From a virus (lineage: Duplodnaviria > Heunggongvirae > Uroviricota > Caudoviricetes), in IMG/VR virus record IMGVR_UViG_2529293043_000033: DNA of 12,085 nucleotides; one strand, written 5' to 3'. The notes below the pieces were generated by a model. It was given only the letters and a program-made list of their open reading frames with translations, had not been told where the DNA came from and searched no databases. The position numbers and the translations under genes were made by a program. Shown piece by piece: positions 1-12,085 of the stretch; within the stretch, counting starts at the first letter, position 1; each line of letters begins with the position of its first letter.

Positions 1-1119
1 TCAAATAACCAACTTAACCCATTCCTGACCTCGAGTATCGTTATAGCGATCGGTGGTTGCCTGGACTTTATGTCCTAGTAATGTTTTTGTATCGATACCC
101 TGTGCACGGTACAGCCGTTCTGATAGAGAGCGTTGTTCATGAAATGTTGGCGGAGTTTTTCCTGCTGGTGGAATTACCCCAGCCAGATCCCGTGCTTTGG
201 CAAAGTAGTCGCTCAGGTTGTCTTTACTCATCGGCTTCGGTTGTTTCTGGTGCCGACTATGGATTAGATATGGACTTAATATTCTGTCTCGGCACCCATC
301 AATAACTTCTTTTAACGTTATCCCAATGGCATCACAGCGTAGTGTAAGCGGTAACGCCAGACGCATTCCGGTTTTTCCCTGGGTGATATGCAAGTGTTCG
401 TTCCACACATCTGAAAAACGCATGTGGCAAATGTCATCACGGCGCTGACCAGTAACAATCGCAAGAAGCATTGCGTTACGGATAAAGTGTTTTTCAGGCG
501 TTGCATTGTAAATTTTTTGCCAGTCTTCCATGGTGAGCCTGGCTCTGGTTACTTTAGGGATCGGTTTACGGGTAGCCTCCGGAGGATTCCATCCAGGAGG
601 AACTTCCCCTGCATGCTGTGCTTCTTTATAAATATCAACCCATAATCCACGATTTACTCTCGCTGTACTGACCATGTCTTTATCCAGCCACTCATCCAGT
701 ATTAATGCAAAGTCTCTTACTTCCAGTTCTTTCAATGGGTGGTTTCCCAGACGGGAAACCAGGTATGCAGCCATTCGAGTTTTTTCTTTGTGAGTTGTAG
801 CTGCAATATCTCCATTTTTCAGTCGCGTGTCCTGTATTTTCAGATATCGATCAACCCATGCCTTTAATCTGATACCCCGACGTTTTGTTGCTGACGGACT
901 TTCATCAATTTTGCGCATGAAATATTCAGCTTCTGCTGCAGCTATTCGCTGATTGGCTGTGGAAGCGATTTTTTCTGCCTTACCTTTGTCTGTTCCGAGT
1001 CCGTGAAATTTTCCAGTCACAGGATTTTTATACTGGTAGTAAACTCTGCCAGTTCTGCGATCAAACTTTTCGTAAAGACCGGCTACGTCAGTGCTGTTTT
1101 TTCGTGGCCTCGGTGACAT
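1..1119 (-). CDS. int: Phage tyrosine-type site-specific integrase (lambda Int family)
   Basis: 372-aa ORF, ATG at 1119-1117, stop is the first 3 bases of the window. C-terminal catalytic region has the R...H-x-x-R...Y pattern (HEQRSLSERLY ... GHKVQATTDRY). Followed by an overlapping small excisionase-like gene, the typical int-xis arrangement. Confidence 0.9.
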   Translation of the reverse strand: MSPRPRKNSTDVAGLYEKFDRRTGRVYYQYKNPVTGKFHGLGTDKGKAEKIASTANQRIAAAEAEYFMRKIDESPSATKRRGIRLKAWVDRYLKIQDTRLKNGDIAATTHKEKTRMAAYLVSRLGNHPLKELEVRDFALILDEWLDKDMVSTARVNRGLWVDIYKEAQHAGEVPPGWNPPEATRKPIPKVTRARLTMEDWQKIYNATPEKHFIRNAMLLAIVTGQRRDDICHMRFSDVWNEHLHITQGKTGMRLALPLTLRCDAIGITLKEVIDGCRDRILSPYLIHSRHQKQPKPMSKDNLSDYFAKARDLAGVIPPAGKTPPTFHEQRSLSERLYRAQGIDTKTLLGHKVQATTDRYNDTRGQEWVKLVI

Positions 1120-1357
1120 GAGTTAAAATCTCCTTCAGTGCATCATCATCGCCAGTATGAATTTCCGGCGCAATTCCCGTTTCACCAGGCCCAACAAATA
1201 CTGCTCGGCGATCTATCAGCCAACGCCCACGAATTTTTTGTGGTCTTGGAACGATGTATCCTAGTTTTCCGTATTTCACCAGGGTAGTGTTTGTTATTGG
1301 GAGACTGAACCGTTTTGGTTTCCACTCGTCGAGCGTTATCAGGTACTGTTCGCTCAT
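1088..1357 (-). CDS. xis: Excisionase-like protein (Xis / DUF1233-type small DNA-binding protein)
   Basis: About 89 aa from ATG at 1357-1355 (GGAG 8 nt upstream on the minus strand); the track's 92-aa version starts at an in-frame GTG at 1366. Overlaps the int start by 32 bp. Small basic protein with an MSEQYLITLDEW ... KYGKLGYIVP motif typical of prophage excisionases. Confidence 0.7.
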   Translation of the reverse strand: MSEQYLITLDEWKPKRFSLPITNTTLVKYGKLGYIVPRPQKIRGRWLIDRRAVFVGPGETGIAPEIHTGDDDALKEILTHVTEATKKQH

Positions 1358-1418
1358 GGCTATCACTCCGGAACGCGCCAGTTGCAGAATATCAACGACA
1401 ACTGGCGACGGTTGAACA

Positions 1419-1856
1419 TTAAAAATCAGCCTGACTCGGGATCAGTTTTTGCCAGATAACTGAAACGTATTTTGCCTGGTAACGGGCGTCATCAAGTGCA
1501 TTATGGCGCTCACCTTCGAATGGAATAGCCGTTCTGGCATCGAAGTCTATGGCTTTCCCCAGCTCAACGATTGTGCGTACATCGCGATCGTTGTAGTAAC
1601 GCCACGGGCAGGGGATCCCCTGCCGTTCGTATGAACGGCGCAAAATCGTGTTGTCGAAGTTGGCTCCATTTCCCCAGACCTGAACAAAAAATTCACCGGA
1701 GTTTTCGTCGATAAATTCCCGCAATTGTAACAGTGCATCATCTAACGGGATTTCATCGGTCATAATGGCAGATTGCGCTTCGCGTGATTGCTTAAGCCAC
1801 CATTTAATGGTGTCCCTCGCCGTGTGCTTTCGTGTTGTGTGCCTGCTTTTTACCAC
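1419..1856 (-). CDS. DEDDh (DnaQ/KapD-like) 3'-5' exonuclease, apparently N-terminally truncated remnant
   Basis: Exo II-like motif (WGNGANFDNT) and Exo III-like motif (HNALDDARY) are present, but no Exo I D-x-E motif in the roughly 60 residues before Exo II. The frame is closed by a stop at 1904-1902 just upstream of the GTG start at 1856-1854, so the missing N-terminus is not encoded here. Confidence 0.6.
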   Translation of the reverse strand: MVKSRHTTRKHTARDTIKWWLKQSREAQSAIMTDEIPLDDALLQLREFIDENSGEFFVQVWGNGANFDNTILRRSYERQGIPCPWRYYNDRDVRTIVELGKAIDFDARTAIPFEGERHNALDDARYQAKYVSVIWQKLIPSQADF

Positions 1857-1880
1857 GTCAGGCGAGGTGGTCCCCGTTAT

Positions 1881-1926
1881 TCCCCAACAACAAGGATCTT
1901 GTTAATCTGGATATCCCCAACAACAA
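1881..1926. repeat. 13-bp direct repeat TCCCCAACAACAA (1881-1893 and 1914-1926) at the junction between the exonuclease remnant and the AT-rich gene
   Basis: Two exact copies read directly from the sequence, about 20 bp apart. Confidence 0.7.
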
Positions 1927-1940
1927 TAAGAGTATTGAAT

Positions 1941-2456
1941 GTGATCGCTGAATTAACGGCAGCAATGACGGCTATTCGTGAAACCGCCCAGATTGCAAAA
2001 CTAATGAACGAGGCAAAAACTCAAGCTGAAGTAAATGCGGCTATTGGTGAACTGAACTCAAAGCTTGCATCTATTCAGCGCGAATGCGTGTCTCTCGTTG
2101 AGCTGGTGGGCACTTATCAAGAAATAAATGCTTCTCTCAAAGCTAAAATTGCAGAATTTGAAAACTTTGAGGCTCAGACGGAAGGTTATATCCTTAGCCA
2201 ACTTGAGTCGGGAACTTTTGTGTACTCGAAGGAGGTAACCGTGAACGGCGGCAGCATAATCATGCATCTTTGTCCAAAATGTTTTGGACAAAAGATAGTA
2301 TCGATACTTCAGCCATTCCCGGTTAGAGAATATGAATTTTTTCATAAAAGCAGGTGCCTGTACTGTGAAAATCAGTTTCTTATGAATAAAAATCCGGATT
2401 ACGTATCACCTCCATCTATTGAAGAGTTGGCCAGAAAACTGAACGGCAATCTGTAG
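1941..2456 (+). CDS. Hypothetical protein: N-terminal coiled-coil, C-terminal CxxC...CxxC zinc-ribbon; AT-rich accessory gene
   Basis: Likely start GTG 1941 (AAGAG 8 nt upstream); alternative ATG 1965 has no SD. About 41% GC by hand count over 1981-2460, versus roughly 50-55% in the neighbouring genes. Oriented against the flanking leftward genes. C-terminus has CPKC ... CLYC. The track's 1788 start runs antisense into the exonuclease gene and is unlikely. Confidence 0.5.
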   Translation: MIAELTAAMTAIRETAQIAKLMNEAKTQAEVNAAIGELNSKLASIQRECVSLVELVGTYQEINASLKAKIAEFENFEAQTEGYILSQLESGTFVYSKEVTVNGGSIIMHLCPKCFGQKIVSILQPFPVREYEFFHKSRCLYCENQFLMNKNPDYVSPPSIEELARKLNGNL

Positions 2457-2570
2457 ATTTTTACTGTTATGGATATCCAGATTGTTAAAGAGCATGCCGG
2501 ATGCTTGCTTGTGTCCGGCGCGTGTGCACCACTCTCCCCCCGTGGAGGATTCCTTAATTACCAGATTTCA

Positions 2571-2801
2571 TTAGTCAGAGTTTCTTGCTAACCAGCGACG
2601 CGCGCCAGATTCGGTTTTAAACGTTTTGCTTTTGGTATACGTCATCGCGGTGAACGTGCCGTCCTGGTTGGGAAACACGCCGCACACCAGAGATTCGTTG
2701 TTGCCAAGATCAAGAGTATCCATGCTGACCTCATATCCCCTTAACGCCGGGGTAGCGGAACAAAAACCTGCTGCATAGTTAAAGTTGAACCCTGCCGTCA
2801 T
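2571..2801 (-). CDS. Hypothetical small protein (76 aa), first gene of the leftward early operon
   Basis: ATG at 2801-2799 with GAGG about 9 nt upstream on the minus strand. Lies about 95 nt downstream of the predicted leftward promoter. No recognisable motif. Confidence 0.4.
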   Translation of the reverse strand: MTAGFNFNYAAGFCSATPALRGYEVSMDTLDLGNNESLVCGVFPNQDGTFTAMTYTKSKTFKTESGARRWLARNSD

Positions 2802-2901
2802 GTTCTTACGCCTCGGGCTGGCTACTTAATCCCTGACCACTGCCGGGTAACTCTAGGTATTGCCCTGTATTGTGTGGGACGGGATGGGTTGGTATGGGAA
2901 A

Positions 2902-2945
2902 ACTATAGGAAATGCCTAATTGCTTGTCAATAGGCTACGCCTAAT
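2902..2945 (-). promoter_or_regulatory. Leftward early promoter (PL-like) with two operator half-palindromes (OL-like)
   Basis: Minus-strand -35 TTGACA (2930-2925), 17-bp spacer, -10 TATAGT (2907-2902). Operator-like sites ATAGGAAATGCCTAAT (2905-2920) and ATAGGCTACGCCTAAT (2930-2945) overlap the -10 and -35 and match the motif found in the OR region. Confidence 0.5.
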
Positions 2946-3003
2946 GATTTGGGTGCGACCTAATAGGTGATGGTTTGTGGGAGAGGTAGTAGGAGTTAAC
3001 TAA

Positions 3004-3023
3004 CGGGAACTAGGAATTTCCCG
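3004..3023 (-). terminator. Possible weak terminator hairpin downstream of the repressor gene
   Basis: Inverted repeat CGGGAA-N8-TTCCCG just 3' of the repressor stop; the following U-tract on the minus strand is weak. Confidence 0.25.
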
Positions 3024-3038
3024 TCGGACCATATAAGT

Positions 3039-3515
3039 TTAAGTTCCTGTCTTGGTGATGTTCTGGCTTTTCCGTTTTGATTCTTGATTTTTCAGATAGT
3101 TAGCTACCTTCATTTCCATTGCGGCAATGTAGGCACGAACGTCATGATCAACCCAACTAGGCTCCGTAGCATTTCCAGATAAGAGGAAAGCCACAATTGC
3201 TCTTTTTTCATCAGAGGCGGCTTGATAAAGGCTGTTTATGTCTAAAAGTTCACTTTTTGTATCTGAAGTGGATGGGGTTGGTATGGGGTATTCGTTAAGC
3301 CCCCAATGCTCTGGACCAACCACATCAGAAAAGAAACGCCATAGTTCTGGAAGTTTGTCTTTACTTATCGAACCTTTCTTAATCCAGTCATGGATTGATG
3401 GTGGTTGGACTTTGAAATGACGTGCGATTTCCGCCTTTGATTTGACGGCTCCTGATGCAATTTTTTTGTTAATGGCCTGCTCTATCGCTCGGCCTAAGTC
3501 TTTACCACTAAGCAT
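3039..3515 (-). CDS. racR: Prophage repressor, RacR-like (CI functional analogue)
   Basis: 158-aa ORF divergent from a YdaS/Cro-like gene and flanked on both sides by repeated operator palindromes. N-terminal HTH-like segment (AEIARHFKVQPPSIHDWIKKG). Size and context match the RacR-YdaS-YdaT immunity module. Confidence 0.75.
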   Translation of the reverse strand: MLSGKDLGRAIEQAINKKIASGAVKSKAEIARHFKVQPPSIHDWIKKGSISKDKLPELWRFFSDVVGPEHWGLNEYPIPTPSTSDTKSELLDINSLYQAASDEKRAIVAFLLSGNATEPSWVDHDVRAYIAAMEMKVANYLKNQESKRKSQNITKTGT

Positions 3516-3542
3516 TGCTTAATAGTCTCCTATGCGCATCGC

Positions 3543-3612
3543 ATTAGGCAATGCCTACTCTCGAAGCGTTAGGCATAGCCTATTGACAATTGCATTAGGC
3601 TAAGCCTAATAT
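3543..3612 (+). promoter_or_regulatory. Tripartite OR-like operator with rightward PR-like promoter
   Basis: Three palindromic sites with centres 25-26 bp apart: ATTAGGCAATGCCTAC (3543-3558), TAGGCATAGCCTA (3570-3582), and the perfect 7-3-7 palindrome ATTAGGCTAAGCCTAAT (3594-3610). Promoter -35 TTGACA (3583-3588), 18-bp spacer, -10 TAATAT (3607-3612), overlapping the third site. Confidence 0.65.
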
Positions 3613-3639
3613 TATTGTGTGTTTTTTGGAGTTCATTCG

Positions 3640-3963
3640 ATGAAAAAAGATAACTATTCATTCAAACGAGCTTGTGCTGTTGTCGGTGGGCAATCAGCAA
3701 TGGCTAGGCTTTTAGGTGTATCTCCTCCAAGCGTAAATCAATGGATCAAAGGTGTACGTCAGTTGCCTGCTGAGAGATGTCCTGCGATTGAACGAGCAAC
3801 AAAAGGTGGTGTCCTGTGTGAAGAACTTCGTCCTGATGTTGATTGGACATACTTACGACGCTCGTCATGTTATTCGCAGAATATGTCGATGAAGCAACCA
3901 AATGACGAAAACGATCATACCCGAAGCATCAAGAGGCAAATGATTCATGAAAATCAAACATGA
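3640..3963 (+). CDS. ydaS: Cro-like HTH regulator, YdaS family
   Basis: ATG 3640 with GGAG 9 nt upstream, about 20 nt from the predicted PR start site. MKKDNYSFKRACAVVGGQSAMARLLGVSPPSVNQWIKGVRQLPAERCPAIERA closely matches what I recall of Rac YdaS. The track's 3619 GTG start is less likely. Confidence 0.8.
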   Translation: MKKDNYSFKRACAVVGGQSAMARLLGVSPPSVNQWIKGVRQLPAERCPAIERATKGGVLCEELRPDVDWTYLRRSSCYSQNMSMKQPNDENDHTRSIKRQMIHENQT

Positions 3964-4372
3964 GCACATCCGCATGGCGATGAATGCCTGGGCATATCCT
4001 GATGGTGAGAAAGTTCCTGCAGCTGAAATAGCCCGGACTTATTTCGAACTGGGGATGACGTTCCCGGAACTGTACGACGACAGCCATCCGGAAGCCCTGG
4101 CTCGTAATACCCAGAAAATTTTCCGTTGGCTGGATAAAGACACCCCTGATGCTGTTGAAAAAATGCAGGCTCTGTTACCGGCGATCGAAAAGGCAATGCC
4201 GCCTCTGCTGGTGGCCCGTATGCGCAGTCACAGCTCTGAATATTACCGTGAGATCGTCGAACGGAGGGATCGGCTGGTGAAAGATGTGGATGATTTTGTC
4301 GCAGCGGCGATCGCCTGGGGCACCCTGACTAACAGTGGGGGTCAGCCTGGTAATGCTGTTGTCGTGCATTGA
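3947..4372 (+). CDS. ydaT: YdaT-like protein (toxic when derepressed; CII-like functional analogue)
   Basis: 141 aa, overlaps the ydaS-like stop by 17 bp. N-terminus MKIKHEHI and its position immediately after ydaS match the Rac/CP-933P arrangement. Confidence 0.7.
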   Translation: MKIKHEHIRMAMNAWAYPDGEKVPAAEIARTYFELGMTFPELYDDSHPEALARNTQKIFRWLDKDTPDAVEKMQALLPAIEKAMPPLLVARMRSHSSEYYREIVERRDRLVKDVDDFVAAAIAWGTLTNSGGQPGNAVVVH

Positions 4373-4440
4373 CCAACAATATTCATGCCGGATTTCTTCC
4401 GGATGTTCGAGGGTAAAGTTCGGTATCAGATGAGGTGAGT

Positions 4441-5478
4441 ATGGCTAATGCCTGGCTCAGATTGTGGCATGACATGCCAAATGATCCCAAATGGCGAACC
4501 ATTGCCAGGGTCTCAGGACAGCCAATCGCAACAGTGATGGCGGTGTATATCCACCTTCTGGTGAGTGCGTCACGAAATGTCACGAAATGTCACGGCGAGT
4601 CACTACGTGGTCACATTGATGTCACGACGGAAGATTTAGCAAGTGCGCTTGATGTGACGGAAGACGTGATTGATTCAATTTTGCATGCAATGCAGGGGCG
4701 AGTTCTGGATGGCGATCTTATTTCCGGATGGGAAAAACGCCAGGTGATGAAGGAGGATAACGGTAATGTTTCGCAAACCGCAAAATCCCCGGCAGAGCGC
4801 AAGAGAGCGCAGCGGGAGCGGGAAAGACTGCGGGAGCAGAACACTGATTGTCACGATGAGTCACGACGCGTCACGCATATGTCACGACAAGTCACGACAG
4901 ATACAGATACAGATAAAGAATTAAACCCCACACATAACGCGCGCATGCGCGAGAGTGCTCCAGCCAGTGAGTCGAATGGCGCGCCGTTGCAGACAGCAGA
5001 ACCTGAATACCCGGATGGCCTGAGCGAACCGATCGGGAAATTTCCGATGACTGGTGTCTGGCGGCCGTCGCTGGATTTTCGACAGCGGGCTGCATTGTGG
5101 GGTATGGCTCTGCCTGAGCCTGAGTTTACACCTGCTGAGCTTGCCGCATTCCGGGATTACTGGATGGCGGAGGGGAAGGTTTTCACGCAGGTTCAGTGGG
5201 AGCAGAAATTTGCCCGTCACGTGCAGCACGTCAGGGCACAGGTAAAACCAGTCAGCAAGGGGGTAAGCCATGCAGCACCAGGTGGCACCGCATCACGGGC
5301 AGTTCAGGAAATTCGGGCAGCACGTGAACAGTGGGAACGTGAAAACGGATTTATCAGCAACGGAAACGGCCTGGAAGCTGTGGGAACTTATGGGGGAGGT
5401 GTATTCGAACCGCTGGACCCAGAAGAACGGGGCTGCGCCGTCGAAGCTCTGGATTGCTCAGATTGGCGCGATGACTGA
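4441..5478 (+). CDS. Replication initiator, lambda O-like (YdaU/DUF1376-type N-terminus), contains the origin iterons; C-terminus possibly extended
   Basis: ATG 4441 with GAGG 5 nt upstream (the track's GTG 4435 is less likely). N-terminus MANAWLRLWHDMPNDPKWRTIA. Two iteron arrays lie inside the gene, as in lambda O. The last roughly 70 codons overlap the P-like gene out of frame and are low-complexity. Confidence 0.75.
   Translation: MANAWLRLWHDMPNDPKWRTIARVSGQPIATVMAVYIHLLVSASRNVTKCHGESLRGHIDVTTEDLASALDVTEDVIDSILHAMQGRVLDGDLISGWEKRQVMKEDNGNVSQTAKSPAERKRAQRERERLREQNTDCHDESRRVTHMSRQVTTDTDTDKELNPTHNARMRESAPASESNGAPLQTAEPEYPDGLSEPIGKFPMTGVWRPSLDFRQRAALWGMALPEPEFTPAELAAFRDYWMAEGKVFTQVQWEQKFARHVQHVRAQVKPVSKGVSHAAPGGTASRAVQEIRAAREQWERENGFISNGNGLEAVGTYGGGVFEPLDPEERGCAVEALDCSDWRDD
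4569..4626. repeat. Iteron array I: six GTCAC(G) repeats at 10-11 bp spacing (candidate ori)
   Basis: GTCACGAAAT GTCACGAAAT GTCACGGCGA GTCACTACGTG GTCACATTGAT GTCACGACGG; copies start at 4569, 4579, 4589, 4599, 4610 and 4621. Confidence 0.75.
4850..4914. repeat. Iteron array II: five GTCACG repeats at 10-11 bp spacing, followed by an (ACAGAT)x3 tandem repeat
   Basis: GTCACG at 4850, 4860, 4870, 4881 and 4891; tandem hexamer 4897-4914 (encodes TDTDTD in the O-like protein). A GCGCGCATGCGCG palindrome follows at about 4929-4942. Confidence 0.75.
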
Positions 5479-5932
5479 ACAGCAAATCCGGCAGGTCTGC
5501 CGTCAGTGCATGGACCGCTGCCGGGCGGGTGAAACGTGGCCTCCGGACCTGGCTGAGTTTGTGGCGTTGATTTCGGAGAGCGGGGCAAATCCATTTGGCC
5601 TGACGGTGGATGCCGTGATGGAGGAGTACCGTCGCTGGAGGAATGAATCCTGGCGGTACGACGGGAGTGATAAATACCCGTGGCCACAGCCGGTGCTGTA
5701 CCACATTTGCCTCGAGATGCGTGACAGAGGGATTGAGCGGCAGATGACGGAAGGTGAGTTAAAACGACTTGCAGAACGGCAACTGACGAAATGGGCAAAG
5801 CAAGTTGGTAACGGGATGAGTATTCCCCCGATCCGGAGACAACTCGCATCGCCGAAGTGCCCGCAAGGGCCAACGCCAATTGAATTACTGAAACAGGAAT
5901 ACGAGCGCCGGAAGGCGGCTGGTTTTGTTTGA
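5270..5932 (+). CDS. Replication protein P-like (helicase loader, lambda P family)
   Basis: ATG 5270 with AAGGGGG SD 6 nt upstream. Recalled similarity to lambda P (TWPPDLAEFVALI versus PFLPSPGQFVAWC; YDGSDKYPWPQP versus YPDAESYPWKSN) falls at comparable residue positions, and the 220-aa length is close to lambda P (233 aa). An alternative coupled start ATG 5471 (ATGACTGA with the O stop) cannot be excluded. Confidence 0.7.
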   Translation: MQHQVAPHHGQFRKFGQHVNSGNVKTDLSATETAWKLWELMGEVYSNRWTQKNGAAPSKLWIAQIGAMTEQQIRQVCRQCMDRCRAGETWPPDLAEFVALISESGANPFGLTVDAVMEEYRRWRNESWRYDGSDKYPWPQPVLYHICLEMRDRGIERQMTEGELKRLAERQLTKWAKQVGNGMSIPPIRRQLASPKCPQGPTPIELLKQEYERRKAAGFV

Positions 5933-5965
5933 ATCTGAGAAACGATTTTGTCGGAGGAAATTTTA

Positions 5966-6682
5966 ATGGAAACCGTATCTGACGCACTGAAAGCACTGAA
6001 AAGAGCCTCTTCACATGTGGTGGCAGCTCGCCTTGGAATTAGTCGTGAAGAGGCTGTCAACGAACTGTGGAAACTGAAACGCCGTGGAGAAGCGGATAAC
6101 AAGGGGGCGATATGGTGGCTGACTCAGGCTGGTGAAAGTGAACCGGTGTCACCGGTACCGAAAGTGACGGCGCAAATGCTGACAGAGGCGATTGAACAAC
6201 ATGGCCCACAAACGGCGGATGAACTGGCATTGATGTTCGGAATTACCTCCCGCCGGGCGAATTCATCGCTGGCAATGGCAATCAGCAAAGGGTGTCTGAT
6301 TCGCGTGAATCAGGATGGTAAATTTCGTTACTGCATACCGGGCGTTGATTTACCGGCAGAGCCGAAAGCAGCATCCGTAGCTGAAACGGAGGGTAAAGCC
6401 CTTCCTCAGCCAGCTGGTGTTGCGTTACCAGTCCAGGAAACGGCTGCACAGGAAGAAATTAAAACAGAAGCGGTGGAGGACATTGTGAAGTTGCAGCAAT
6501 CGTTCACTGAAGCGAAAGCAGATGACCTGATTCTACCATCGCTGCATGTGGCTAACCGCGAGCTGCGCCGGGCGAAAAGTAATGTTCAGAAGTGGGAGCG
6601 AGTCTGTGCTGCGCTACGGGAACTGAACAAACACAGGGATATTCTCCGGGATATTACCGCCACCAGAGAGCAGCAGCGGTGA
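5966..6682 (+). CDS. Hypothetical protein with two winged-helix-like segments and a C-terminal coiled-coil (possibly DUF1627-like)
   Basis: ATG 5966 with GGAGG 8 nt upstream; the track's start at 5948 is a TTG. HTH-like segments [19 protein letters not shown] and [24 protein letters not shown]. Confidence 0.55.
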
Positions 6683-6996
6683 GTGGCTGGAAGAAGTGGC
6701 GCTGGGCTGAAATCCTGATACTCCGGCAGTGTGCGGGAACGATGAGAGTCGAAAGCATCGGTTATCTGATTGGCCGTAGTGAGTCAGCCGTCAGGACGAA
6801 AGCGCGGGAACTGGGTATCAGCATGATGTTACGGGGTGATTATCACCAGTCAGCCAAATGTTCACAGCGTGATATTGAGCTGGCGTGGCAACTGCATCAG
6901 CGTGGTGTACCCCGACGGGAAATTGCCGAAAAGTTTGGGATGAAGTTGGGCGCAGTGAATAACTACGTTTATTTCGACAGGAGGGTTCAGGAGTGA
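6679..6996 (+). CDS. Hypothetical DNA-binding protein (two HTH-like segments)
   Basis: In-frame GTG at 6679 overlaps the upstream TGA (GTGA coupling); alternative ATG at 6742. HTH-like segments [20 protein letters not shown] and [20 protein letters not shown]. Confidence 0.45.
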
Positions 6997-6998
6997 GG

Positions 6999-7295
6999 GT
7001 GAGGGTTTATATCGCCGGTCCGATGACGGGATATGAAAATTTTAACCGCGAGGCATTTCACAAAACGGAAGAGGTGCTGAAACGGGAAGGGCATACCGTT
7101 TTAAACCCGGCAGTACTTCCGGACGGGCTGACTCAGCCACACTACATGGATATTTGCATGGCAATGCTCCGTTGCGTGGATGCGGTTTACATGCTGAAAG
7201 GCTGGCAGCAGTCGGCAGGTGCAGGGGCTGAGCTGGCACTGGAGGAGAAACCGGGCCATGCGGTGATTTTTCAGGAGGTGGGCAGTGAATATTGA
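6999..7295 (+). CDS. DUF4406-like protein (nucleoside 2-deoxyribosyltransferase-like fold)
   Basis: VYIAGPMTG N-terminal motif with a downstream W..S.G.GAE pattern. GTG 6999 with AGGAG 7 nt upstream (the track's GTG 6993 has no usable spacing). Confidence 0.6.
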   Translation: MRVYIAGPMTGYENFNREAFHKTEEVLKREGHTVLNPAVLPDGLTQPHYMDICMAMLRCVDAVYMLKGWQQSAGAGAELALEEKPGHAVIFQEVGSEY

Positions 7296-7602
7296 CCCGG
7301 CGATAACGATTGATATGGCCCTGAACGCCGGCCTGGCACTTCTTGGTTATTTCTACATTATGTTCTGCAGCGGACGATGGCTGTCACTGTTGTTCATGAA
7401 AAAATGGAATAAACGCCGTAAGCAGGAGCAACGCCAGAAGGCAATGGATGCATTTTTCGAAGCCTTCGGAATTGACGGCATGGAACCAGGGGATCCAGCT
7501 CGCGCAATCAGCAGAGGGGGTGTAGTAATCCTTGTATATCGGAGTGAAGAGAAAAATGACGATCACAAAACAACGTGTAGAAGAAATCATATCCCGCATT
7601 GA
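7285..7602 (+). CDS. Hypothetical small membrane protein
   Basis: GTG 7285 with AGGAGG 6 nt upstream. Predicted TM helix ALNAGLALLGYFYIMFCSGRWLSLLFM followed by a basic stretch. The 3' end overlaps the next gene by about 47 bp, so its extent is uncertain. Confidence 0.4.
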   Translation: MNIDPAITIDMALNAGLALLGYFYIMFCSGRWLSLLFMKKWNKRRKQEQRQKAMDAFFEAFGIDGMEPGDPARAISRGGVVILVYRSEEKNDDHKTTCRRNHIPH

Positions 7603-7873
7603 AATGTATGGACATGGTGCAGGGTATATCGCAGACGAGGTTAATGATCTGGCTATACTGGCGCTGAATTTATCAAATATCGCGAACCTGAAGCGATACG
7701 AGCTTGATATGGGAGGTTGCGACTCGTGCGGTCAGGATTGTGGCGCTGATATGACTGAAGATCCTGATGGTGATTATGTCCTGTTTGATGACGTGGTTAA
7801 GTTGTTTGAATTTGATACAACCACTCAAAAGTTAGAAATCCCGGCAAAGGAGGCAGCCAGTGGGCAAGATTGA
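7556..7873 (+). CDS. Hypothetical acidic protein
   Basis: ATG 7556 preceded by GGAGTGAAGAG. 105 aa with a CDSCGQDCG cysteine cluster and an acidic C-terminus. Confidence 0.5.
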   Translation: MTITKQRVEEIISRIEMYGHGAGYIADEVNDLAILALNLSNIANLKRYELDMGGCDSCGQDCGADMTEDPDGDYVLFDDVVKLFEFDTTTQKLEIPAKEAASGQD

Positions 7874-8297
7874 CTATCAGGCACTGCGTGAGGCAGCACA
7901 AAACTATCAATCGACGCTGGCGTGGTATCAGGCTACCCCGGACAGCCCAAATGCTGAACGGGATTGTGATGCGGCTCTTGCTGCGTTTAAGCGTCACATC
8001 CGTCATCGGGAAGCGGATATTATCGCTGATTTGCTGGATGGACTGGAAGAAGCAAAATCACAACTCAACGAGCAGCGTGAGTATTACGAAGGCGTTATCT
8101 CTGATGGGAGCAAGCGTATTGCTGAACTGGAAGCGCGGGAAGTTCAATTACCGACTCGCTACGACCTTCGATATGGACACCCGATAAATGCAGATGAGCG
8201 ACATGTCATGATACCTAAAGAAAATGGCAGTTGGCTTTACCTGATTGACCTAGAACACGCATTACGCGTCGCTGGCATTCGCATCAAAGGAGAGTGA
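7860..8297 (+). CDS. Ea22-like prophage protein (N-terminal QALREAA motif)
   Basis: GTG 7860 with AAGGAGG 6 nt upstream; overlaps the upstream gene by 14 bp. N-terminus IDYQALREAAQNY is characteristic of the E. coli prophage ead/Ea22-like family. Confidence 0.55.
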   Translation: MGKIDYQALREAAQNYQSTLAWYQATPDSPNAERDCDAALAAFKRHIRHREADIIADLLDGLEEAKSQLNEQREYYEGVISDGSKRIAELEAREVQLPTRYDLRYGHPINADERHVMIPKENGSWLYLIDLEHALRVAGIRIKGE

Positions 8298-8298
8298 G

Positions 8299-8490
8299 AT
8301 GAACGGACAAATATCAATTGTTCGACCAGGAGCATGTGACGATCGCGAAATACGAATGATTATTCGTCTGGCGATGGGGAAAACAATAACTGCTCTCATT
8401 ACTCCAGAAAATCTCGCATTAGCATTAACAGGAAAGTCAGACATGCCAGTAGAGCTAAAGCTGCGAAATGTTGAGATTAAGGTGAAATAG
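8299..8490 (+). CDS. Hypothetical small protein (63 aa)
   Basis: ATG 8299 with AGGAG upstream, starting 1 nt after the preceding stop; tightly packed between neighbouring genes. Confidence 0.5.
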   Translation: MNGQISIVRPGACDDREIRMIIRLAMGKTITALITPENLALALTGKSDMPVELKLRNVEIKVK

Positions 8491-8492
8491 CT

Positions 8493-9080
8493 ATGACCAC
8501 TATTACCAAAGATCGACTGCTGACAATCCAGCATTGGCGCGAAACATACGGACCGGGTAGCAACGTTGTGCTTCCAGCAGAAGAAGCGGAAGAGCTGGCA
8601 CGGATTGCGCTGGCATCACTGGCAGCAGTATCGGATGAACGAGCAGCCTATGAATTATTTATGGAGAAGCGTTTCGGAGAATCTGTAGATCGCCGCAGAG
8701 CAAAAAATGGCGATAGAGATTACATGGTATGGGATATGGCGCTTGGCTGGATTATCTGGTGTCACCGCGCCGCCATGCTTCAGGCTGGAAACTTTCGGGA
8801 AAATAAGGGTTCGTCAACCAATAATTTTCGGGAAATCTCGGAAACGTCAACCAACTATCCGGTAACTCCGGATGGTTGGATAAGCTGTAGTGAGCGAATG
8901 CCGGATGATGGTCAGCACGTAATTATTTTATGTGATGGCGCATTCGTTCTTTATGCGCAATATCGAGACGGTGAGTTTTTTGATGTAGTCCGTAATGGTG
9001 ATGAATTTTTCGAAACACAGAGCCGCAATGTAACCGACTGGATGCCGCTACCAGAACCGCCGCAGGAGGTGCGCCAATGA
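8493..9080 (+). CDS. DUF551-domain prophage protein
   Basis: C-terminal motif TDWMPLPEPP typical of DUF551; starts 2 nt after the preceding stop. Confidence 0.65.
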   Translation: MTTITKDRLLTIQHWRETYGPGSNVVLPAEEAEELARIALASLAAVSDERAAYELFMEKRFGESVDRRRAKNGDRDYMVWDMALGWIIWCHRAAMLQAGNFRENKGSSTNNFREISETSTNYPVTPDGWISCSERMPDDGQHVIILCDGAFVLYAQYRDGEFFDVVRNGDEFFETQSRNVTDWMPLPEPPQEVRQ

Positions 9081-9160
9081 TCTGGCCTGAAGCCTTTGCA
9101 ATTACAGGCGTTGCTATAGCTATTGATTTTTTAGTATATGTTATTTGTCGGTGGGGGTAA
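9077..9160 (+). CDS. Small hydrophobic peptide (27 aa, MIWPEAFAITGVAIAIDFLVYVICRWG), not in the ORF track
   Basis: ATG 9077 overlaps the DUF551 stop (ATGA); AGGAGG at 9064-9069 gives a 7-nt spacer. One predicted TM helix. Confidence 0.4.
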   Translation: MIWPEAFAITGVAIAIDFLVYVICRWG

Positions 9161-9195
9161 AAACGTTCGCCGGGATTCACACCAAAGGAGGGAAT

Positions 9196-9300
9196 ATGTC
9201 GGATGATATTTCACTGGCAATGGAAGGTGCGCTGGCTGTTATTGCTGTTGTGGGCGTTTACTGCCTGGTTGTGTTTTTGATGGATCGACTAGGGAACTGA
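9196..9300 (+). CDS. Small membrane peptide (34 aa, MSDDISLAMEGALAVIAVVGVYCLVVFLMDRLGN), not in the ORF track
   Basis: ATG 9196 preceded by AAAGGAGGG. One predicted TM helix. Followed immediately by a perfect 22-bp palindrome. Confidence 0.45.
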   Translation: MSDDISLAMEGALAVIAVVGVYCLVVFLMDRLGN

Positions 9301-9308
9301 ATTCATTA

Positions 9309-9330
9309 CGATATGGGAATTCCCATATCG
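9309..9330. repeat. Perfect 22-bp palindrome CGATATGGGAATTCCCATATCG
   Basis: Read directly; self-complementary around GAATTC. Lies between the second small peptide and the putative hok promoter; no U-tract follows. Confidence 0.7.
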
Positions 9331-9342
9331 GGTAAAAACGGT

Positions 9343-9370
9343 TTGCGGTAAAGCGAGAGTTAAGTAGAAT
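9343..9370 (+). promoter_or_regulatory. Candidate hok mRNA promoter
   Basis: -35 TTGCGG (9343-9348), 16-bp spacer, -10 TAGAAT (9365-9370). A transcript from here to the terminator at about 9796 would be about 420 nt, the expected hok mRNA size. Confidence 0.35.
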
Positions 9371-9429
9371 TGCTGCGGGTGCTTGAGGCTGTCTGCCTCG
9401 GGCATGCCACCGTAAGGTAGACAGAGAAA

Positions 9430-9497
9430 AGCCCCAGTTAACATTACGCGTCCTGCAAGACGCCTAACATTAATCTGAGGCCAATTTCATGCTAGAC
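9430..9497 (-). ncRNA. Candidate Sok-like antisense RNA (approximate extent)
   Basis: Minus-strand promoter candidate -35 TTGCCT (9532-9527), 17-bp spacer, -10 TAACCT (9509-9504), placing an antisense transcript over the mok/hok leader and start region as in hok/sok loci. The 3' end was not resolved. Confidence 0.3.
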
Positions 9498-9545
9498 ACA
9501 TGTAGGTTAGCCTCTTACGCGCCGAAAGGCAAGGAGAAGCAGGCT

Positions 9546-9701
9546 ATGAAGCAGCAAAAGGCGATGTTAATCGCCCTGATCGTCATCTGTATCACCGTCA
9601 TAGTGACGGCACTGGTAACGAGGAAAGACCTCTGCGAGGTACGAATCCGAACCGGCCAGACGGAGGTCGCTGTCTTCACAGCTTACGAACCTGAGGAGTA
9701 A
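9546..9701 (+). CDS. hokD: Hok/Gef-family type I toxin (HokD/RelF-like)
   Basis: 51-aa product MKQQKAMLIALIVICITVIVTALVTRKDLCEVRIRTGQTEVAVFTAYEPEE, near-identical to HokD/RelF as I recall it. AGGAG 9 nt upstream of ATG 9546. An in-frame upstream ATG at 9489 gives a mok-like leader frame. Confidence 0.85.
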   Translation: MKQQKAMLIALIVICITVIVTALVTRKDLCEVRIRTGQTEVAVFTAYEPEE

Positions 9702-9770
9702 GAGACCCGGCGAGGGAGAAATCCCTCGCCACCTCTGATGAATCAGGCATCCTCAACGCACCCGCACTTA

Positions 9771-9796
9771 ACCCGCTTCGGCGGGTTTTGTTTTTT
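9771..9796 (+). terminator. Rho-independent terminator of the hok transcript
   Basis: CCCGC-TTCG-GCGGG stem-loop (9772-9785) followed by TTTTGTTTTTT. Preceded by an fbi-like hairpin GGCGAGGGA-GAAA-TCCCTCGCC at 9709-9730. Confidence 0.75.
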
Positions 9797-9868
9797 CCTG
9801 GCATTCTGGTTTACAATTCGCACGCCAGCCTGAACAACTGGCACCTGCTGCGCCAGCAGAGACAACCG

Positions 9869-10147
9869 ATGGCGCACGATACCAAATTATACAATTCTGA
9901 TGATTCTGCCGTCTTTGCCAGCAGGCGCGGACGGTGTTTTCACGCATTCAAATCTGACTGGTACCAGCATCCCCCATGCACTGAAGAACAGGCCGAATGG
10001 CTCATTCAGTGTTACCGCAGGCGCGGATGCGAGGTTAAAAAAGCCCTTAGCCTCGACTACCGTCACTGGATAATCTCCGTCAGGCTCCCTTACTCCGAAC
10101 GGCCACCGCGTCCGTCCCGCACATTCCAGCAACGGATCTGGAGGTAA
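9869..10147 (+). CDS. Hypothetical protein, Rem-like by position (follows hok as in Qin prophage)
   Basis: First ATG after the terminator (9869), 92 aa. The track's 9788 start lies inside the terminator. Cysteine-rich (C..H ... PPC ... C..RRGC). Assignment is by synteny only. Confidence 0.45.
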   Translation: MAHDTKLYNSDDSAVFASRRGRCFHAFKSDWYQHPPCTEEQAEWLIQCYRRRGCEVKKALSLDYRHWIISVRLPYSERPPRPSRTFQQRIWR

Positions 10148-10148
10148 T

Positions 10149-10832
10149 GTGCGGGTATTACTTCGACCTGTTCTGGTACCGGAACTCGGTCTGGTTATCG
10201 TTAAGCCAGGCCGTGAATCAATGTCAGCATTCCATAACGGCAGAATACTGGTGGAGCCGGAACCAAAAAGCATGCGAGCTCTGCCGTCCGGGGTTGTACC
10301 TGCCGTTCACCAGCCGCTGGCGGAAGATAAATCACTACTGCCATTTTTCAGCGATGAGCGGGTGATCCGTGCTGCGGGTGGCGCTGGTGCACTGTCTGAC
10401 TGGTTATTACGTCACGTGAAATCCTGCCAGTGGCTACACGGTGATTATCATCATAGCGAAACCGTCATTCACCGTTACGGTACCGGCGCGATGGTGTTGT
10501 GCTGGCACTGCGACAACCAGCTGCGGGAGCAGACATCTGATTCACTGGATCAACTTGCTCAACAGAATCTGGCCGCCTGGATGATTGACATCATCCGTCA
10601 CGCAATGAATGGCGCACAGGAGCGTGAATTATCTCTGGCTGAATTATCCTGGTGGGCGGTCCGCAATCAGGTGGCGGACGCGCTACCGGAAGCGGTATTA
10701 CGTCGTTCGCTGGGGTTGCGTGCGGAAAAAATCCGCTCCGTATACCGTGAAAGCGACATCATACCGGGAGAACAGACCGCCACCAGCATACTGAAGCAGC
10801 GCACAAAAAATATTGCGCTACCGTCTCACTGA
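10149..10832 (+). pseudogene. DUF968-like protein (YdfU-like), 3'-truncated by IS insertion
   Basis: GTG 10149 with GGAGG 6 nt upstream. Contains a CQWLHGDYHH ... CWHCDNQ zinc-finger-like motif. The ORF runs to the IS boundary and its stop codon TGA (10830-10832) is the first three bases of the IS inverted repeat; K-12 YdfU is about 349 aa versus 227 here. Confidence 0.6.
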
Positions 10833-10871
10833 ACCGCCCCGGGTTTCCTGGAGAGTGTTTTATCTGTGAAC

Positions 10872-11762
10872 TCAGGCTGCCAGATCATCGTTTCCGATGG
10901 AAGCATAATAAGCTTTTTCTGCTTCTGCCGGAGGAGTATGGCCCAGCCTTCCCAGCAATCGTCGATTGTTATACCAGTCCACCCACGTTAGTGTGGCCAG
11001 TTCCACTTCTGCACGGTTTTTCCAGCTCTTACGGTGTATTACCTCCGCTTTGTAAAGACCATTGATGCTCTCAGCCATCGCGTTGTCATACGAGTCGCCT
11101 GTACTCCCTGTTGATGCCAGTAATCCGGCTTCTTTTAGTCGCTCCGTATAGGCCAGTGACACATACTGAGAGCCTTTATCGCTGTGATGGATGGTGCCAG
11201 ACGGACGACGGGCCCACAACGCCTGCTCCAGCGCATCCAGCACGAATGTCGTTTCCATAGACGATGAGACCCGCCACCCCACGATGTATCCGGCAAACAC
11301 ATCAATGATAAACGCCACATAGACGAAGCCCTGCCATGTGCTGACGTAAGTAAAATCAGCCACCCACAGCTGGTCAGGTCGTTCTGCCACGAACTGACGG
11401 TTTACGCGGTCGCCTGCGGCAACGGCTTTCCGGCTGATGGTCGTACGGACCTTTTTACCCCGGAGAACACCGGCAAGTCCCATAACCGCCATGAGACGTG
11501 CCACTGTACATCTGGCCACCCTGATTCCTTCCCGTAACAACTGACGCCAGACTTTACGCACACCGTACACCTGATGATTTTCATCGTATACGCGCTGTAT
11601 CTCTCTCTTCAGCCAGTCGTCGTGCTGCGCACGGGCACTGCGTTTATCCGGATGATGTCGCTGTTGCTGACAATGGTAATACGTTGACGGGGCAATATGC
11701 AGTTCGCTGCATACCGGTCCGACCCCGTACTGCTCACGCAGCTTATCCAGCAGTGGCATCAT
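10872..11762 (-). CDS. IS3-family transposase OrfB (DDE/integrase catalytic domain)
   Basis: 296 aa; DDE-type motifs (WVADFTYV ... [10 protein letters not shown]); overlaps the orfA stop (ATGA). Confidence 0.9.
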
Positions 11763-12085
11763 TTTTTCCAGAGGCGGTCGAACTCCGCCTTCGCAAAATA
11801 AGCGGAAGCCTGGCGAAGGATATCGTTACTGCGGCGCAGTTCACGATTTTCACGTTCCAGCTCTTTCAGACGCTGACGTTCAGCGCTGGTGAGCCCACCA
11901 TCACCGCCCCCGGTATCCCGCTCATGCTGGCGAACCCAGACACGCAGAGTCTCCGGCGTACAGCCAATCTTTGGGGCAATGGAACAAATTGCCGCCCACT
12001 GTGAGTCATATTCATCCTGACTTTCCAGAACCATACGAATCGCCCGCTGACGGACTTCGGGGGAAAAACGAGTATTTTTAGTCAT
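11759..12085 (-). CDS. IS3-family transposase OrfA (HTH and leucine zipper)
   Basis: 108 aa, [22 protein letters not shown] ... [31 protein letters not shown]. The ATG sits on the last 3 bases of the window. An A6 run at the orfA/orfB junction is the presumed -1 frameshift site. Confidence 0.9.

Follow-up and report, generated by a model that had tools for sequence, protein, structure and literature searches.

In phages P22 and lambda, the sieB gene lies on the opposite strand within the early-left operon, beside the immunity region, and its promoter-leader and the sas antisense RNA of both phages were reportedly described by Ranade and Poteete in 1993. In P22, the antisense RNA switches translation from SieB to Esc by way of an internal start codon. 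The sequence of the P22 sas RNA is available (PMC13397905). A second system is that of Rip1 (ring interacting pore 1) of phage HK446 (PDB 9oox), an anti-phage pore protein encoded by a prophage (Patel et al. 2026, via PMC13434031). According to that source, characterised Rip1 homologues assemble on the small-terminase or portal ring, which leads to a membrane pore and to protection against phages. As for the prophage concerned here, Sp6 is the potC prophage of strain Sakai (PMC8190617). In an earlier report, the ExoVIII-type recombination system of Sp6 is listed as defective, and only that of Sp10 as intact (Asadulghani et al. 2009, PMC2669165).

The window, which is the whole stretch of 12,085 nucleotides that was analysed (IMG/VR record IMGVR_UViG_2529293043_000033), is the left end of an O157:H7 prophage integrated at potC (Sp6 of Sakai). 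It begins with an integrase gene (1-1119, minus strand), whose 3′ end is outside the window and whose product shows no difference from the integrase of Sp6-type prophages integrated at potC (WP_000074985.1, beside potC). The next gene encodes an excisionase (1088-1366, minus strand; Pfam PF07825), as annotated in the relatives. An exonuclease remnant, a pair of direct repeats and a 171-aa gene on the plus strand follow. Very probably, these features represent two independent neighbours, namely a 2,960-bp deletion and a native sieB-type cassette with its repeats in front of a Rip1-like gene.

Two O157 strains, 493/89 (L008) and 4276 (L007), carry the same prophage at the same potC site in undeleted form, with the gene order int-xis-exo(823 aa)-DUF1482-dicB-spacer-171-aa gene. 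Window positions 1-1816 correspond to positions 2925-4740 of L008 with 100% identity, and window positions 1815-9516 to positions 7699-15400 with 99.9% identity, the difference between the offsets being 2960. Comparison with strain 4276 had the same outcome. Both strains thus provide what is expected for a deletion-derived pseudogene: an undeleted allele at the same site, near-identical flanks and a single gap. An earlier note on this DNA had proposed a deletion or insertion that took away the 5′ end of the exonuclease and most of the early-left (recombination) region. A deletion of this end along with early-left genes is borne out, as the window lacks exactly 2,960 bp of the allele of 493/89 and 4276. 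The lost segment comprised 2,074 bp of exo (84%), the DUF1482 (ydfD-like) gene, dicB and 417 bp of the spacer; dicB and the DUF1482 gene therefore went together with the recombinase. The deletion joined exo codon 692 to a position 124 bp before the next gene, which is on the opposite strand. At the junction (1815-1817), CC at 1815-1816 is common to both parental flanks and the right flank proper begins with 1817, so that the microhomology at the joint 1816/1817 is 2 bp. A value of 0 bp, derived from a 94%-identical relative, was superseded by this comparison with the true ancestor. The overlap of only 2 bp points to illegitimate recombination, although the mechanism itself is not readable from so short an overlap.

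Undeleted Sp6 alleles occur in at least 10 O157 genomes, among them strains 493/89, LSU61 and 4276, and the same gene order was also found in other potC and tRNA-Ser prophages. The junction was found in 267 of 5,426 complete E. coli genomes. An Rfam search of the deleted spacer for DicF or another known small RNA yielded a sub-threshold STnc100-like match only (33 bits against a cut-off of 47), located upstream of dicB in the 94%-identical relative. The deletion has already been annotated and published as a defect (RefSeq pseudogene; PMC2669165). It is genuine but unremarkable, one decay event more in a prophage catalogued as defective, and by itself it is of little import. Relative to the accessible text of PMC2669165, what is new is the placement of the breakpoints, the size of 2,960 bp, the simultaneous loss of dicB and DUF1482 and the undeleted Sp6 alleles. 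The 2,960-bp gap with its joint at CC is an exact marker that distinguishes most O157:H7 genomes from the undeleted minority (including 493/89 and LSU61).

The exo remnant (1419-1816, minus strand) is the 3′-terminal 398 bp (131 codons and the stop) of the gene for an 823-aa ExoVIII-N/DEDDh exonuclease, and it is 100% identical to positions 4343-4740 of L008. The full-length protein consists of PF06630 and PF16473 (residues 632-803), and its relatives, the ExoVIII-N/Rv2179c-like DEDDh fusion exonucleases of lambdoid and Rac-type prophages (phrog_2082), have 813-823 aa. The remnant corresponds to the C-terminal 131 residues of these proteins; unlike them, it keeps only part of the DEDDh domain and has lost the whole ExoVIII-type N-terminal region. 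Its match to PF16473 (Rv2179c-like DEDDh 3′-5′ exonuclease) covers profile positions 46-177 of 177 only. Exo II (NGANFD) and Exo III (HNALDDA) are kept and Exo I is absent, as had been noticed earlier; the missing motif (MIDLETMG; D636/E638 of the full-length protein) falls in the deleted part. The remnant is thus short of a complete DEDDh domain (Exo I DxE, Exo II NxxxD and Exo III Hx4D). The loss had been put at about 25 or more N-terminal residues, but it amounts to 691 codons of the 823-aa protein. PGAP annotates the remnant as a pseudogene ("incomplete; missing N-terminus"). Because the catalytic Exo I motif is gone, the remnant is a dead pseudogene, and with the ExoVIII-type N-terminal region also lost, no activity is expected of it.

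It could be argued that the ORF is instead a complete and functional short exonuclease with a two-motif architecture, since 145-160 codons are open (145 aa from a GTG in the minus-strand ORF 1419-1856) and Exo II and Exo III are intact. This is extremely improbable. The 100% identity with the 3′ end of the 823-aa gene in the sister strains extends no further than 1816, and what precedes it in the ORF is intergenic DNA. The acidic residues of Exo I, which the DEDDh fold requires, are missing, and the PHROG and Pfam matches span just the C-terminal parts of longer families. No homology to any exonuclease was found in the stretch 1817-1901, and no conserved family of about 145 aa starting at this position was seen in unrelated genomes. 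In the pseudogene, the GTG at 1856 is a fortuitous start, and the frame reads through unrelated intergenic DNA (1817-1904, minus strand) back to the in-frame TAA at 1904-1902, where the earlier note had already placed its closure.

Regarding the cause of the deletion, IS629/IS1203 may have inserted in the dicB-rip1 spacer and then been lost with both flanks, in place of a spontaneous illegitimate recombination. An IS-excision-enhancer type of deletion in O157 is said to have been reported by Kusumoto and colleagues in 2011. In line with this route, O157 strains 1130 and NCCP 13918 carry IS1203 at a site corresponding to L008 7373-7375, within the interval deleted in the window. A second IS629-type insertion is present in the prophage of the window, where it abuts an apparent deletion of about 600 bp at about 10830, as judged by the span of the nearest matches. 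However, neither an IS sequence nor a target duplication is left at 1816/1817, and the IS site of strain 1130 is 325 bp and 2.6 kb away from the two breakpoints. With 24 substitutions relative to the window in the exo region, strain 1130 is also not its direct ancestor. An IS629-associated origin is thus possible but rather unlikely, and we favour spontaneous illegitimate recombination.

The two direct repeats do not belong to this event. Both copies of the 13-bp sequence TCCCCAACAACAA (1881-1893 and 1914-1926, plus strand) are exact, as reported earlier, and they are 33 bp apart. No other 13-mer of the window recurs exactly as a direct repeat within 60 bp, and such a pair arose in about 1% of Markov-simulated windows. 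The earlier note had regarded them as the mark of the junction. If they were the footprint of a rearrangement, either repeat recombination or a target-site duplication, the junction would be at the repeats; their distance of at most 110 bp from the end of the exonuclease homology and the rarity of so close an exact pair by chance would agree with this. However, when collinearity was aligned relative to the repeats, the break with the intact genes was found at 1816/1817, 65 bp to the left of repeat 1. Recombination between direct repeats would also leave one copy, not two. Furthermore, the pair with its 33-bp spacing is present in every undeleted relative examined (N = 5), including the undeleted alleles of 493/89 and 4276, and in phage PhiR29_1, whose left arm differs. 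The repeats thus occur in intact relatives with no rearrangement. Therefore, they are not a deletion scar, and a rearrangement footprint has next to no likelihood.

In 24 homologous loci, the repeat pair was found at about -59 and about -26 from the start codon, and all but three of these loci have an exact CCCCAAC core in both copies. Homologues from at least 14 other enterobacterial genera have a recognisable pair at an unchanged distance from the start codon. In HK446, HK620, P22 and lambda, the pair has a sequence of its own, TACCCCTACAG, with a distance of 34 nt. In the Arsenophonus and Trabulsiella odontotermitis loci, the sole surviving copy is the one beside the Shine-Dalgarno sequence. 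Two other roles for the repeats were considered and rejected. A GcvB target or AgvB-like anti-sRNA (C/A-rich, with ARN motifs) does not agree with the invariant core, which is UCCCCAACA; the CAACAA part is variable in Symbiopectobacterium and Edwardsiella, and P22 and HK446 have CUACAG instead. AgvB and the Sp6 EcOnc RNAs have other map positions. A type III toxin-antitoxin repeat array was discarded, as the repeated part is just 13 of the 33 nt and the second copy directly adjoins the Shine-Dalgarno sequence.

The repeats are part of a block of about 100 nt that is conserved upstream of the Rip1-like family in at least 14 enterobacterial genera, the homologues having been gathered across genera by an alignment-based scan. 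The leaders are 73-85% identical to that of the window and the coding sequences 63-73%, and the DNA further upstream is at background level; in the two Symbiopectobacterium loci, the leader is no better conserved than the coding sequence. A blastn search with the HK446 leader matched lambda (34396-34481) and P22 (29652-29736) with 87% identity over about 85 nt, and the P22 match is annotated as "sieB promoter" and "sieB RNA start site". The window aligns with the sieB region of P22 and lambda over the whole block and is thus homologous to it. The blocks of P22 and lambda have the same GCCTG...CAGGC...GTGG 5′ part and likewise two direct repeats with a CCCC core, 33-34 nt from each other and located at -35 and +1, with TACCCCTACAG in place of TCCCCAACAACAA. 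The place and the orientation relative to the early-left operon and the immunity region are also the same. In contrast, the downstream genes, SieB in P22 and lambda and Rip1-like in the window, are mutually non-homologous.

The mapped transcription start of P22 sieB (29727) aligns with window position 1914 (±1), which is the first base of repeat 2. Repeat 2 therefore corresponds to the 5′ end of a leader of about 27 nt. Repeat 1 overlaps the predicted -35 region (TTCCCC, 1880-1885). The predicted -10 hexamer, TAATCT (1903-1908, plus strand), was assigned by homology and aligns with TAAACT in P22, TATAAT in an E. coli homologue and GATAAT in a Klebsiella homologue. Both elements are weak (6/12), and a consensus promoter scan of the window left the sieB-type promoter below threshold. 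A Shine-Dalgarno sequence (AAGAG, 1929-1933) and a GTG start codon (1941-1943; together 1929-1943, plus strand) follow, according to the family alignment and PGAP. A structured plus-strand leader was rejected, as RNAalifold gave one invariant stem only (-7.7 kcal/mol).

On the opposite strand, the counterpart of sas was recognised at 1821-1945 (minus strand). It represents the conserved block in reverse complement and extends from a point 5 nt within the Rip1-like ORF to a little beyond the GCCTG/CAGGC hairpin. The P22 sas sequence maps to positions 885-1011 of the P22 locus (L036), which is the same block upstream of sieB in reverse complement. Near the 3′ end, two interleaved helices (1841-1870, minus strand) are formed by GCCTG (1841-1845) with CAGGC (1859-1863) and by CCAC (1853-1856) with GTGG (1867-1870). 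The conserved block ends abruptly on its left at this segment, whose CCAC/GUGG helix changes to CCGC/GCGG in Edwardsiella. RNAalifold on the minus strand further gave a hairpin with a GGGG loop (1874-1895, minus strand), the complement of repeat 1 and the preceding TTATT. Helix 1 is 95.9% paired and has three pairs changed on both sides. It contains many G-U pairs, which would be A-C mismatches on the plus strand, where the helix was not predicted. The minus-strand structure as a whole is 94% paired, compared with about 40% in slid controls, with six pairs changing on both sides and none of 500 shuffles matching the observed values; these covariation counts come from related sequences, in an alignment partly shaped by the same conservation. 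The block of the window therefore has on its opposite strand both a counterpart of the sas sequence and a conserved RNA structure.

Whereas the start and the antisense RNA of P22 have been mapped and sequenced, promoter use near 1914 and production of the antisense RNA in O157 are predicted from homology. A consensus promoter scan for the antisense RNA in P22 and the window found none. The RNA may come either from its own promoter or from processing of a leftward early transcript. A candidate early-left (PL-type) promoter at 2902-2930 (minus strand) is a strong sigma-70 match (TTGACA-17-TATAGT, 11/12), its PL-type role being suggested by its location between the DUF1391 gene and a racR-like repressor gene. 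A leftward transcript from this promoter would run antisense across the Rip1-like gene and the sas-like block and then into the exo remnant, xis and int. Rfam over 1780-2000 gave nothing at gathering score and noise only at E ≤ 10; the library therefore appears to be without a sas family.

From these homologies we infer the following regulatory outcome for O157. The cassette would be a portable one, since it precedes sieB in P22 and lambda and rip1 in HK446 and HK620. On the plus strand, it would act as a weak promoter, its -35 region being covered by repeat 1 and the first 13 nt of the short leader (+1 to +13) being supplied by repeat 2. On the minus strand, the same 105-125 nt or so would form the counterpart of the P22 sas RNA, with anti-repeat 1 in the GGGG-loop hairpin. 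In a lysogen, the promoter would express the Rip1-like defence protein. Upon leftward early transcription, during induction or from a homoimmune phage, the antisense RNA would pair with the leader, and translation may be damped or altered, as with sas on sieB. The two identical copies could serve this pairing, as the mRNA would begin with repeat 2, to which the hairpin loop (anti-repeat 1) would also be complementary. Rip1-like proteins show no conservation of Met9. With no conserved esc-type internal start, of the kind on which the sieB/esc switch depends, the outcome of the pairing may therefore differ in the Rip1-like family.

The repeats could also be DNA-level operators only, separated by three helical turns with one site at -35 and one at +1, and bound by the Rip1-like protein through its zinc ribbon or by a host factor, the antisense RNA being irrelevant for the Rip1-like family. 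The constant spacing of 33-34 bp would be consistent with this. Both copies also change in parallel between subfamilies (CCCCAACA versus CCCCTACAG), which would fit a co-evolving cognate binding protein. However, the G-U-rich covariation is specific to the minus strand and favours an RNA helix over repeat 1, and the solved Rip1 is, according to PMC13434031, a ring-binding pore protein and no DNA binder. In addition, the same cassette precedes SieB, which is non-homologous to Rip1 (hhalign probability 0.1%), so that an autoregulator common to both is unlikely. We consider operators alone improbable and prefer the promoter with an overlapping antisense RNA.

The gene behind the cassette (1941-2456, plus strand; phrog_1244) encodes a Rip1-family protein of 171 aa, and PGAP calls the same 516-bp CDS. 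It had been described as AT-rich, which is moderately so (41.9% GC against 50% for the window). The protein has a coiled-coil/amphipathic N-terminal half and a beta-rich C-terminal half with an invariant four-cysteine zinc ribbon. The family profile matched PDB 9oox_L with E = 4.5e-20 (query 5-151 to chain 15-160 of 164), and BLASTP against HK446 gp37 gave E = 5e-13. An AF2 model (pLDDT 91.2) has helices at 3-24 and 28-79 and six strands, and its top Foldseek match was 9oox_M (E = 5e-7; TM-score 0.71 normalised to the target). Therefore, the protein shares with HK446 Rip1 both full-length homology and the fold, including the helical N-terminal half, the beta-rich C-terminal half and the four zinc-ribbon cysteines, although the identity is only 27%. 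The HK446 gene, too, belongs to a prophage, occupies the same genomic niche and follows the same upstream cassette. In contrast, P. aeruginosa Rip1 homologues are located between terminase genes (in part from PMC13434031) and not beside the immunity region. The gene is thus a Rip1 homologue, with a putative anti-phage function.

PADLOC 2023 models gave a chance-level match only (E = 0.04), and this library appears to be without Rip1. A single-protein scan of GTDB genomes for the Rip1-like family gave no matches. An N-terminal extension or an upstream small ORF over the repeats was rejected, as frame-breaking indels occur there among the homologues and the M-I-A-E-L start is uniform in the family alignment (33 homologues). 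The main frame of the gene has no stop between 1788 and the start codon, and the product annotated in PhiR29_1 has 242 aa. The assignment of the Rip1 homologue and the sas-like RNA is a modest new annotation. It is more useful than the deletion in that a "hypothetical protein" of Sp6, present in hundreds of O157:H7 genomes, is re-annotated as a Rip1 homologue, behind the same promoter/antisense cassette as the classical sieB of P22 and lambda.

We tentatively suggest that the sieB-type cassette is portable and that lambdoid prophages throughout the Enterobacterales use it repeatedly, as a regulatory module, for exclusion genes that are unrelated to each other (SieB and Rip1-like). This module may consist of a weak promoter and an overlapping sas-like antisense RNA, with two CCCC-core repeats evolving in concert. 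If so, antisense control could allow a phage carrying Rip1 to silence the pore-forming defence that it encodes while it is itself growing lytically. The testable idea is that self-toxic defence genes are expressed in lysogens and silenced in the growth of the phage itself. The deletion halted 24 nt before the cassette, which would fit selection to keep the defence gene.

The ORF map and annotated relatives identify the window as the left end of a lambdoid prophage inserted beside potC, and positions 1-10829 match Escherichia coli O157:H7 strain TR01 at 99.98%. The potC prophage of O157:H7 is Sp6 of strain Sakai (PMC8190617). The minus strand encodes an integrase (1-1119), an excisionase (1088-1366) and an exonuclease fragment (1419-1856). 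These are followed by a 171-aa gene on the plus strand (1941-2456), a DUF1391 gene, a racR-type repressor, cro- and ydaT-like genes, replication genes and, at the right end, an IS3-family element. A hok/sok-type toxin-antitoxin locus lies at 9377-9701 (Rfam sok at 9377-9551, 114 bits, overlapping a hokD-like ORF).

The exonuclease is dead in the window. Its minus-strand frame is open from 1901 to a stop at 1419 and is closed upstream by TAA at 1904-1902. A frame and motif check agreed with the earlier note in finding the Exo II (NGANFD) and Exo III (HNALDDA) motifs kept and Exo I missing. The remnant is an Rv2179c-like DEDDh domain lacking profile positions 1-45 (Pfam), while full-length relatives (813-823 aa) have PF06630, an ExoVIII-type domain, at the N-terminus and the DEDDh domain at residues 632-803. 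According to phage and genome searches, the match of the left flank to full-length "exodeoxyribonuclease VIII / 3'-5' exonuclease" genes ends at 1816, and from 1817 rightward the window matches a module different from that of the left flank; positions 1817-1901 of the remnant "ORF" are read-through into spacer DNA. RefSeq already labels the remnant a pseudogene, and Asadulghani et al. (PMC2669165) list the recombination function of Sp6 as defective.

Two undeleted Sp6 alleles, both at potC (L008, strain 493/89; L007, strain 4276), encode integrase, excisionase, DUF1391 and RacR proteins identical to those of the window, in the gene order int-xis-exo (823 aa)-DUF1482-dicB-541 bp-171-aa gene. 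L008 2925-4740 is 100% identical to window 1-1816 and L008 7699-15400 is 99.9% identical to window 1815-9516; the window is therefore short of exactly 2,960 bp. The loss comprises 691 codons (2,074 bp) of exo together with the DUF1482 gene, dicB and 417 bp of spacer; exo keeps 131 codons, and the 171-aa gene keeps 124 bp of its upstream DNA. A deletion of the exonuclease 5' end and early-left genes, as proposed in the earlier note, thus did occur. It is ordinary and has been recorded before: its junction was found in 267 of 5,426 complete E. coli genomes, and the undeleted allele in at least ten O157 genomes.

The two flanks overlap at the joint by CC alone (1815-1816), which points to illegitimate recombination. 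An IS-associated origin is unproven and remains a live rival, since IS1203 sits inside the deleted interval in two sister O157 strains (1130 and NCCP 13918) and another IS629-type insertion, in the window's own prophage, abuts an apparent adjacent deletion. In the sister strains, IS1203 occupies the dicB-rip1 spacer at L008 7373-7375 (4277-5586 in the strain 1130 locus). The full-length exo of strains 4276, 1130 and several more cattle-hide isolates contains an internal stop, so that exo was inactivated independently there. The IS629/IS1203 (IS3-family) element of the window (10830-12085) starts at about 10831 with the inverted repeat TGAACCGCCCCGGGTTTCC, cuts a DUF968 gene at codon 227 and contains an ALIL frameshift pseudoknot (11688-11804). 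Its exact junction at about 10831 was in none of the complete E. coli genomes of the collection; at this junction the nearest genomes, F7349 and FRIK804, have about 600 bp extra (a 401-nt query spans 1,018 bp), with a RusA gene before the IS. This difference suggests an IS-adjacent deletion in the source strain near 10830.

Two exact copies of TCCCCAACAACAA are indeed present at 1881-1893 and 1914-1926. No other exact 13-mer recurs at such close range in the window, and in simulation about 1% of windows have a pair of this kind. The distinctive claim of the earlier note, that these repeats are the scar of the deletion, was wrong, although the deletion and the dead exonuclease both stood. Collinearity with full-length relatives breaks at 1816/1817 and not at the repeats. 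Both copies, at 33 bp spacing, occur in every undeleted relative examined and also in phage PhiR29_1, which differs from the window in its left arm; the earlier note had itself named the presence of the repeats in intact relatives as refuting its reading.

The repeats belong to a block of about 100 nt directly 5' of the start codon of the 171-aa gene, conserved across 24 homologous loci that represent at least 14 genera. Its left edge is abrupt, at GCCTG. Identity to the window is 73-85% in the block and 63-73% in the coding sequence, and falls to background farther upstream; the two Symbiopectobacterium loci (L016 and L022) have a block no more conserved than the coding sequence. Measured from the start codon, the repeats lie at about -59 and -26, with an exact CCCCAAC core in both copies in all but three of the 24 loci. 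A coding role for the block was ruled out by one-nucleotide indels among homologues. In Arsenophonus nasoniae (L014, 2940-3000), a lone repeat copy stands next to the Shine-Dalgarno sequence and the 33-nt unit with repeat 1 and the -10 region is absent; this form may be an ancestral or reduced cassette. The deposited 242-aa CDS of PhiR29_1 (4262-4990) is over-extended 5' across the promoter and sas block, its true start, as judged by aligning the family and from indels farther 5', being the GTG that corresponds to window 1941.

Homologues of the 171-aa protein form 109 clusters in prophages of many Enterobacterales (phrog_1244) and match no Pfam family. In the loci examined, the gene and its left-hand neighbours are on opposite strands, and in most the immunity repressor is adjacent. 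The gene was identified by way of an AF2 model (pLDDT 91): the Rip1 chain was the sole significant Foldseek match, and the family profile matched the solved HK446 Rip1 ("ring interacting pore 1") over nearly its full length (E = 4.5e-20; 27% identity and E = 5e-13 by pairwise BLASTP). By tblastn, the similarity extends to HK620 hkaP and to Pseudomonas aeruginosa DMS3/JBD30-type phages. Rip1 assembles on small-terminase or portal rings of the phage into a membrane pore, aborting infection (review PMC13434031). The Sp6 gene is a Rip1-family member by sequence, with a putative anti-phage role by homology.

The block was in turn identified through the HK446 homologue. Its 5' part recurs in HK446 and HK620, which carry a repeat pair of their own, TACCCCTACAG, at 34 nt spacing. 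The HK446 leader matched 147 phage records by blastn, among them lambda 34396-34481, directly 5' of sieB, and P22 29652-29736, where the annotation gives the sieB promoter and RNA start. Alignment with P22 places on the plus strand of the window a predicted -35 region (TTCCCC, 1880-1885, within repeat 1), a predicted -10 hexamer (TAATCT, 1903-1908) and, where repeat 2 opens (about 1914), a predicted RNA start. The sas antisense RNA of P22 (sequence in PMC13397905) corresponds exactly to the reverse complement of the block and reaches from 5 nt within sieB to slightly beyond the GCCTG hairpin. The 171-aa family shows no similarity to SieB of P22, and the cassette is therefore common to non-homologous exclusion genes. 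Plus-strand RNA structure of the block is weak; RNAalifold predicted on the minus strand a GGGG-loop hairpin on the complement of repeat 1 and 3'-terminal helices. Paired cells amounted to 94% on the minus strand, against about 40% in slid controls, and six pairs were altered on both sides; no shuffle matched the observed values. Many of the pairs are G-U and would mismatch on the plus strand. A Rip1-family gene with a sieB/sas-type cassette is an added annotation for Sp6, of modest value.

In the lysogen, a weak sieB-type promoter would express the Rip1-like protein from an mRNA with a leader of about 27 nt opening with repeat 2. Leftward early transcription, possibly from a strong promoter match on the minus strand at 2930-2902, would yield a sas-like RNA that pairs with this leader. 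The repeats may be identical because the GGGG-loop hairpin, complementary to repeat 1, is also complementary to the mRNA 5' end. The deletion ends 24 nt short of the cassette and would thus have left the defence module intact.

In the spacer upstream of dicB, which is lost from the window, Rfam matched STnc100 below threshold in the undeleted relative L003 (5563-5780, minus strand; 33 bits, gathering score 47, E = 2.5e-5) and gave no DicF match. A Citrobacter-type prophage from a human gut metagenome (L011, 1262-4412) carries the rip1-like gene and the full cassette directly between xis and an S24-type repressor and lacks early-left genes altogether, an arrangement resembling deleted Sp6. In the prophage at tRNA-Ser/mtfA of O55:H7 RM12579 (L005), the rip1-like module (7199-8144) is 99% identical to window 1815-2761 and the exonuclease gene only 87.5% identical; the defence cassette is therefore common to paralogous prophages of the lineage.
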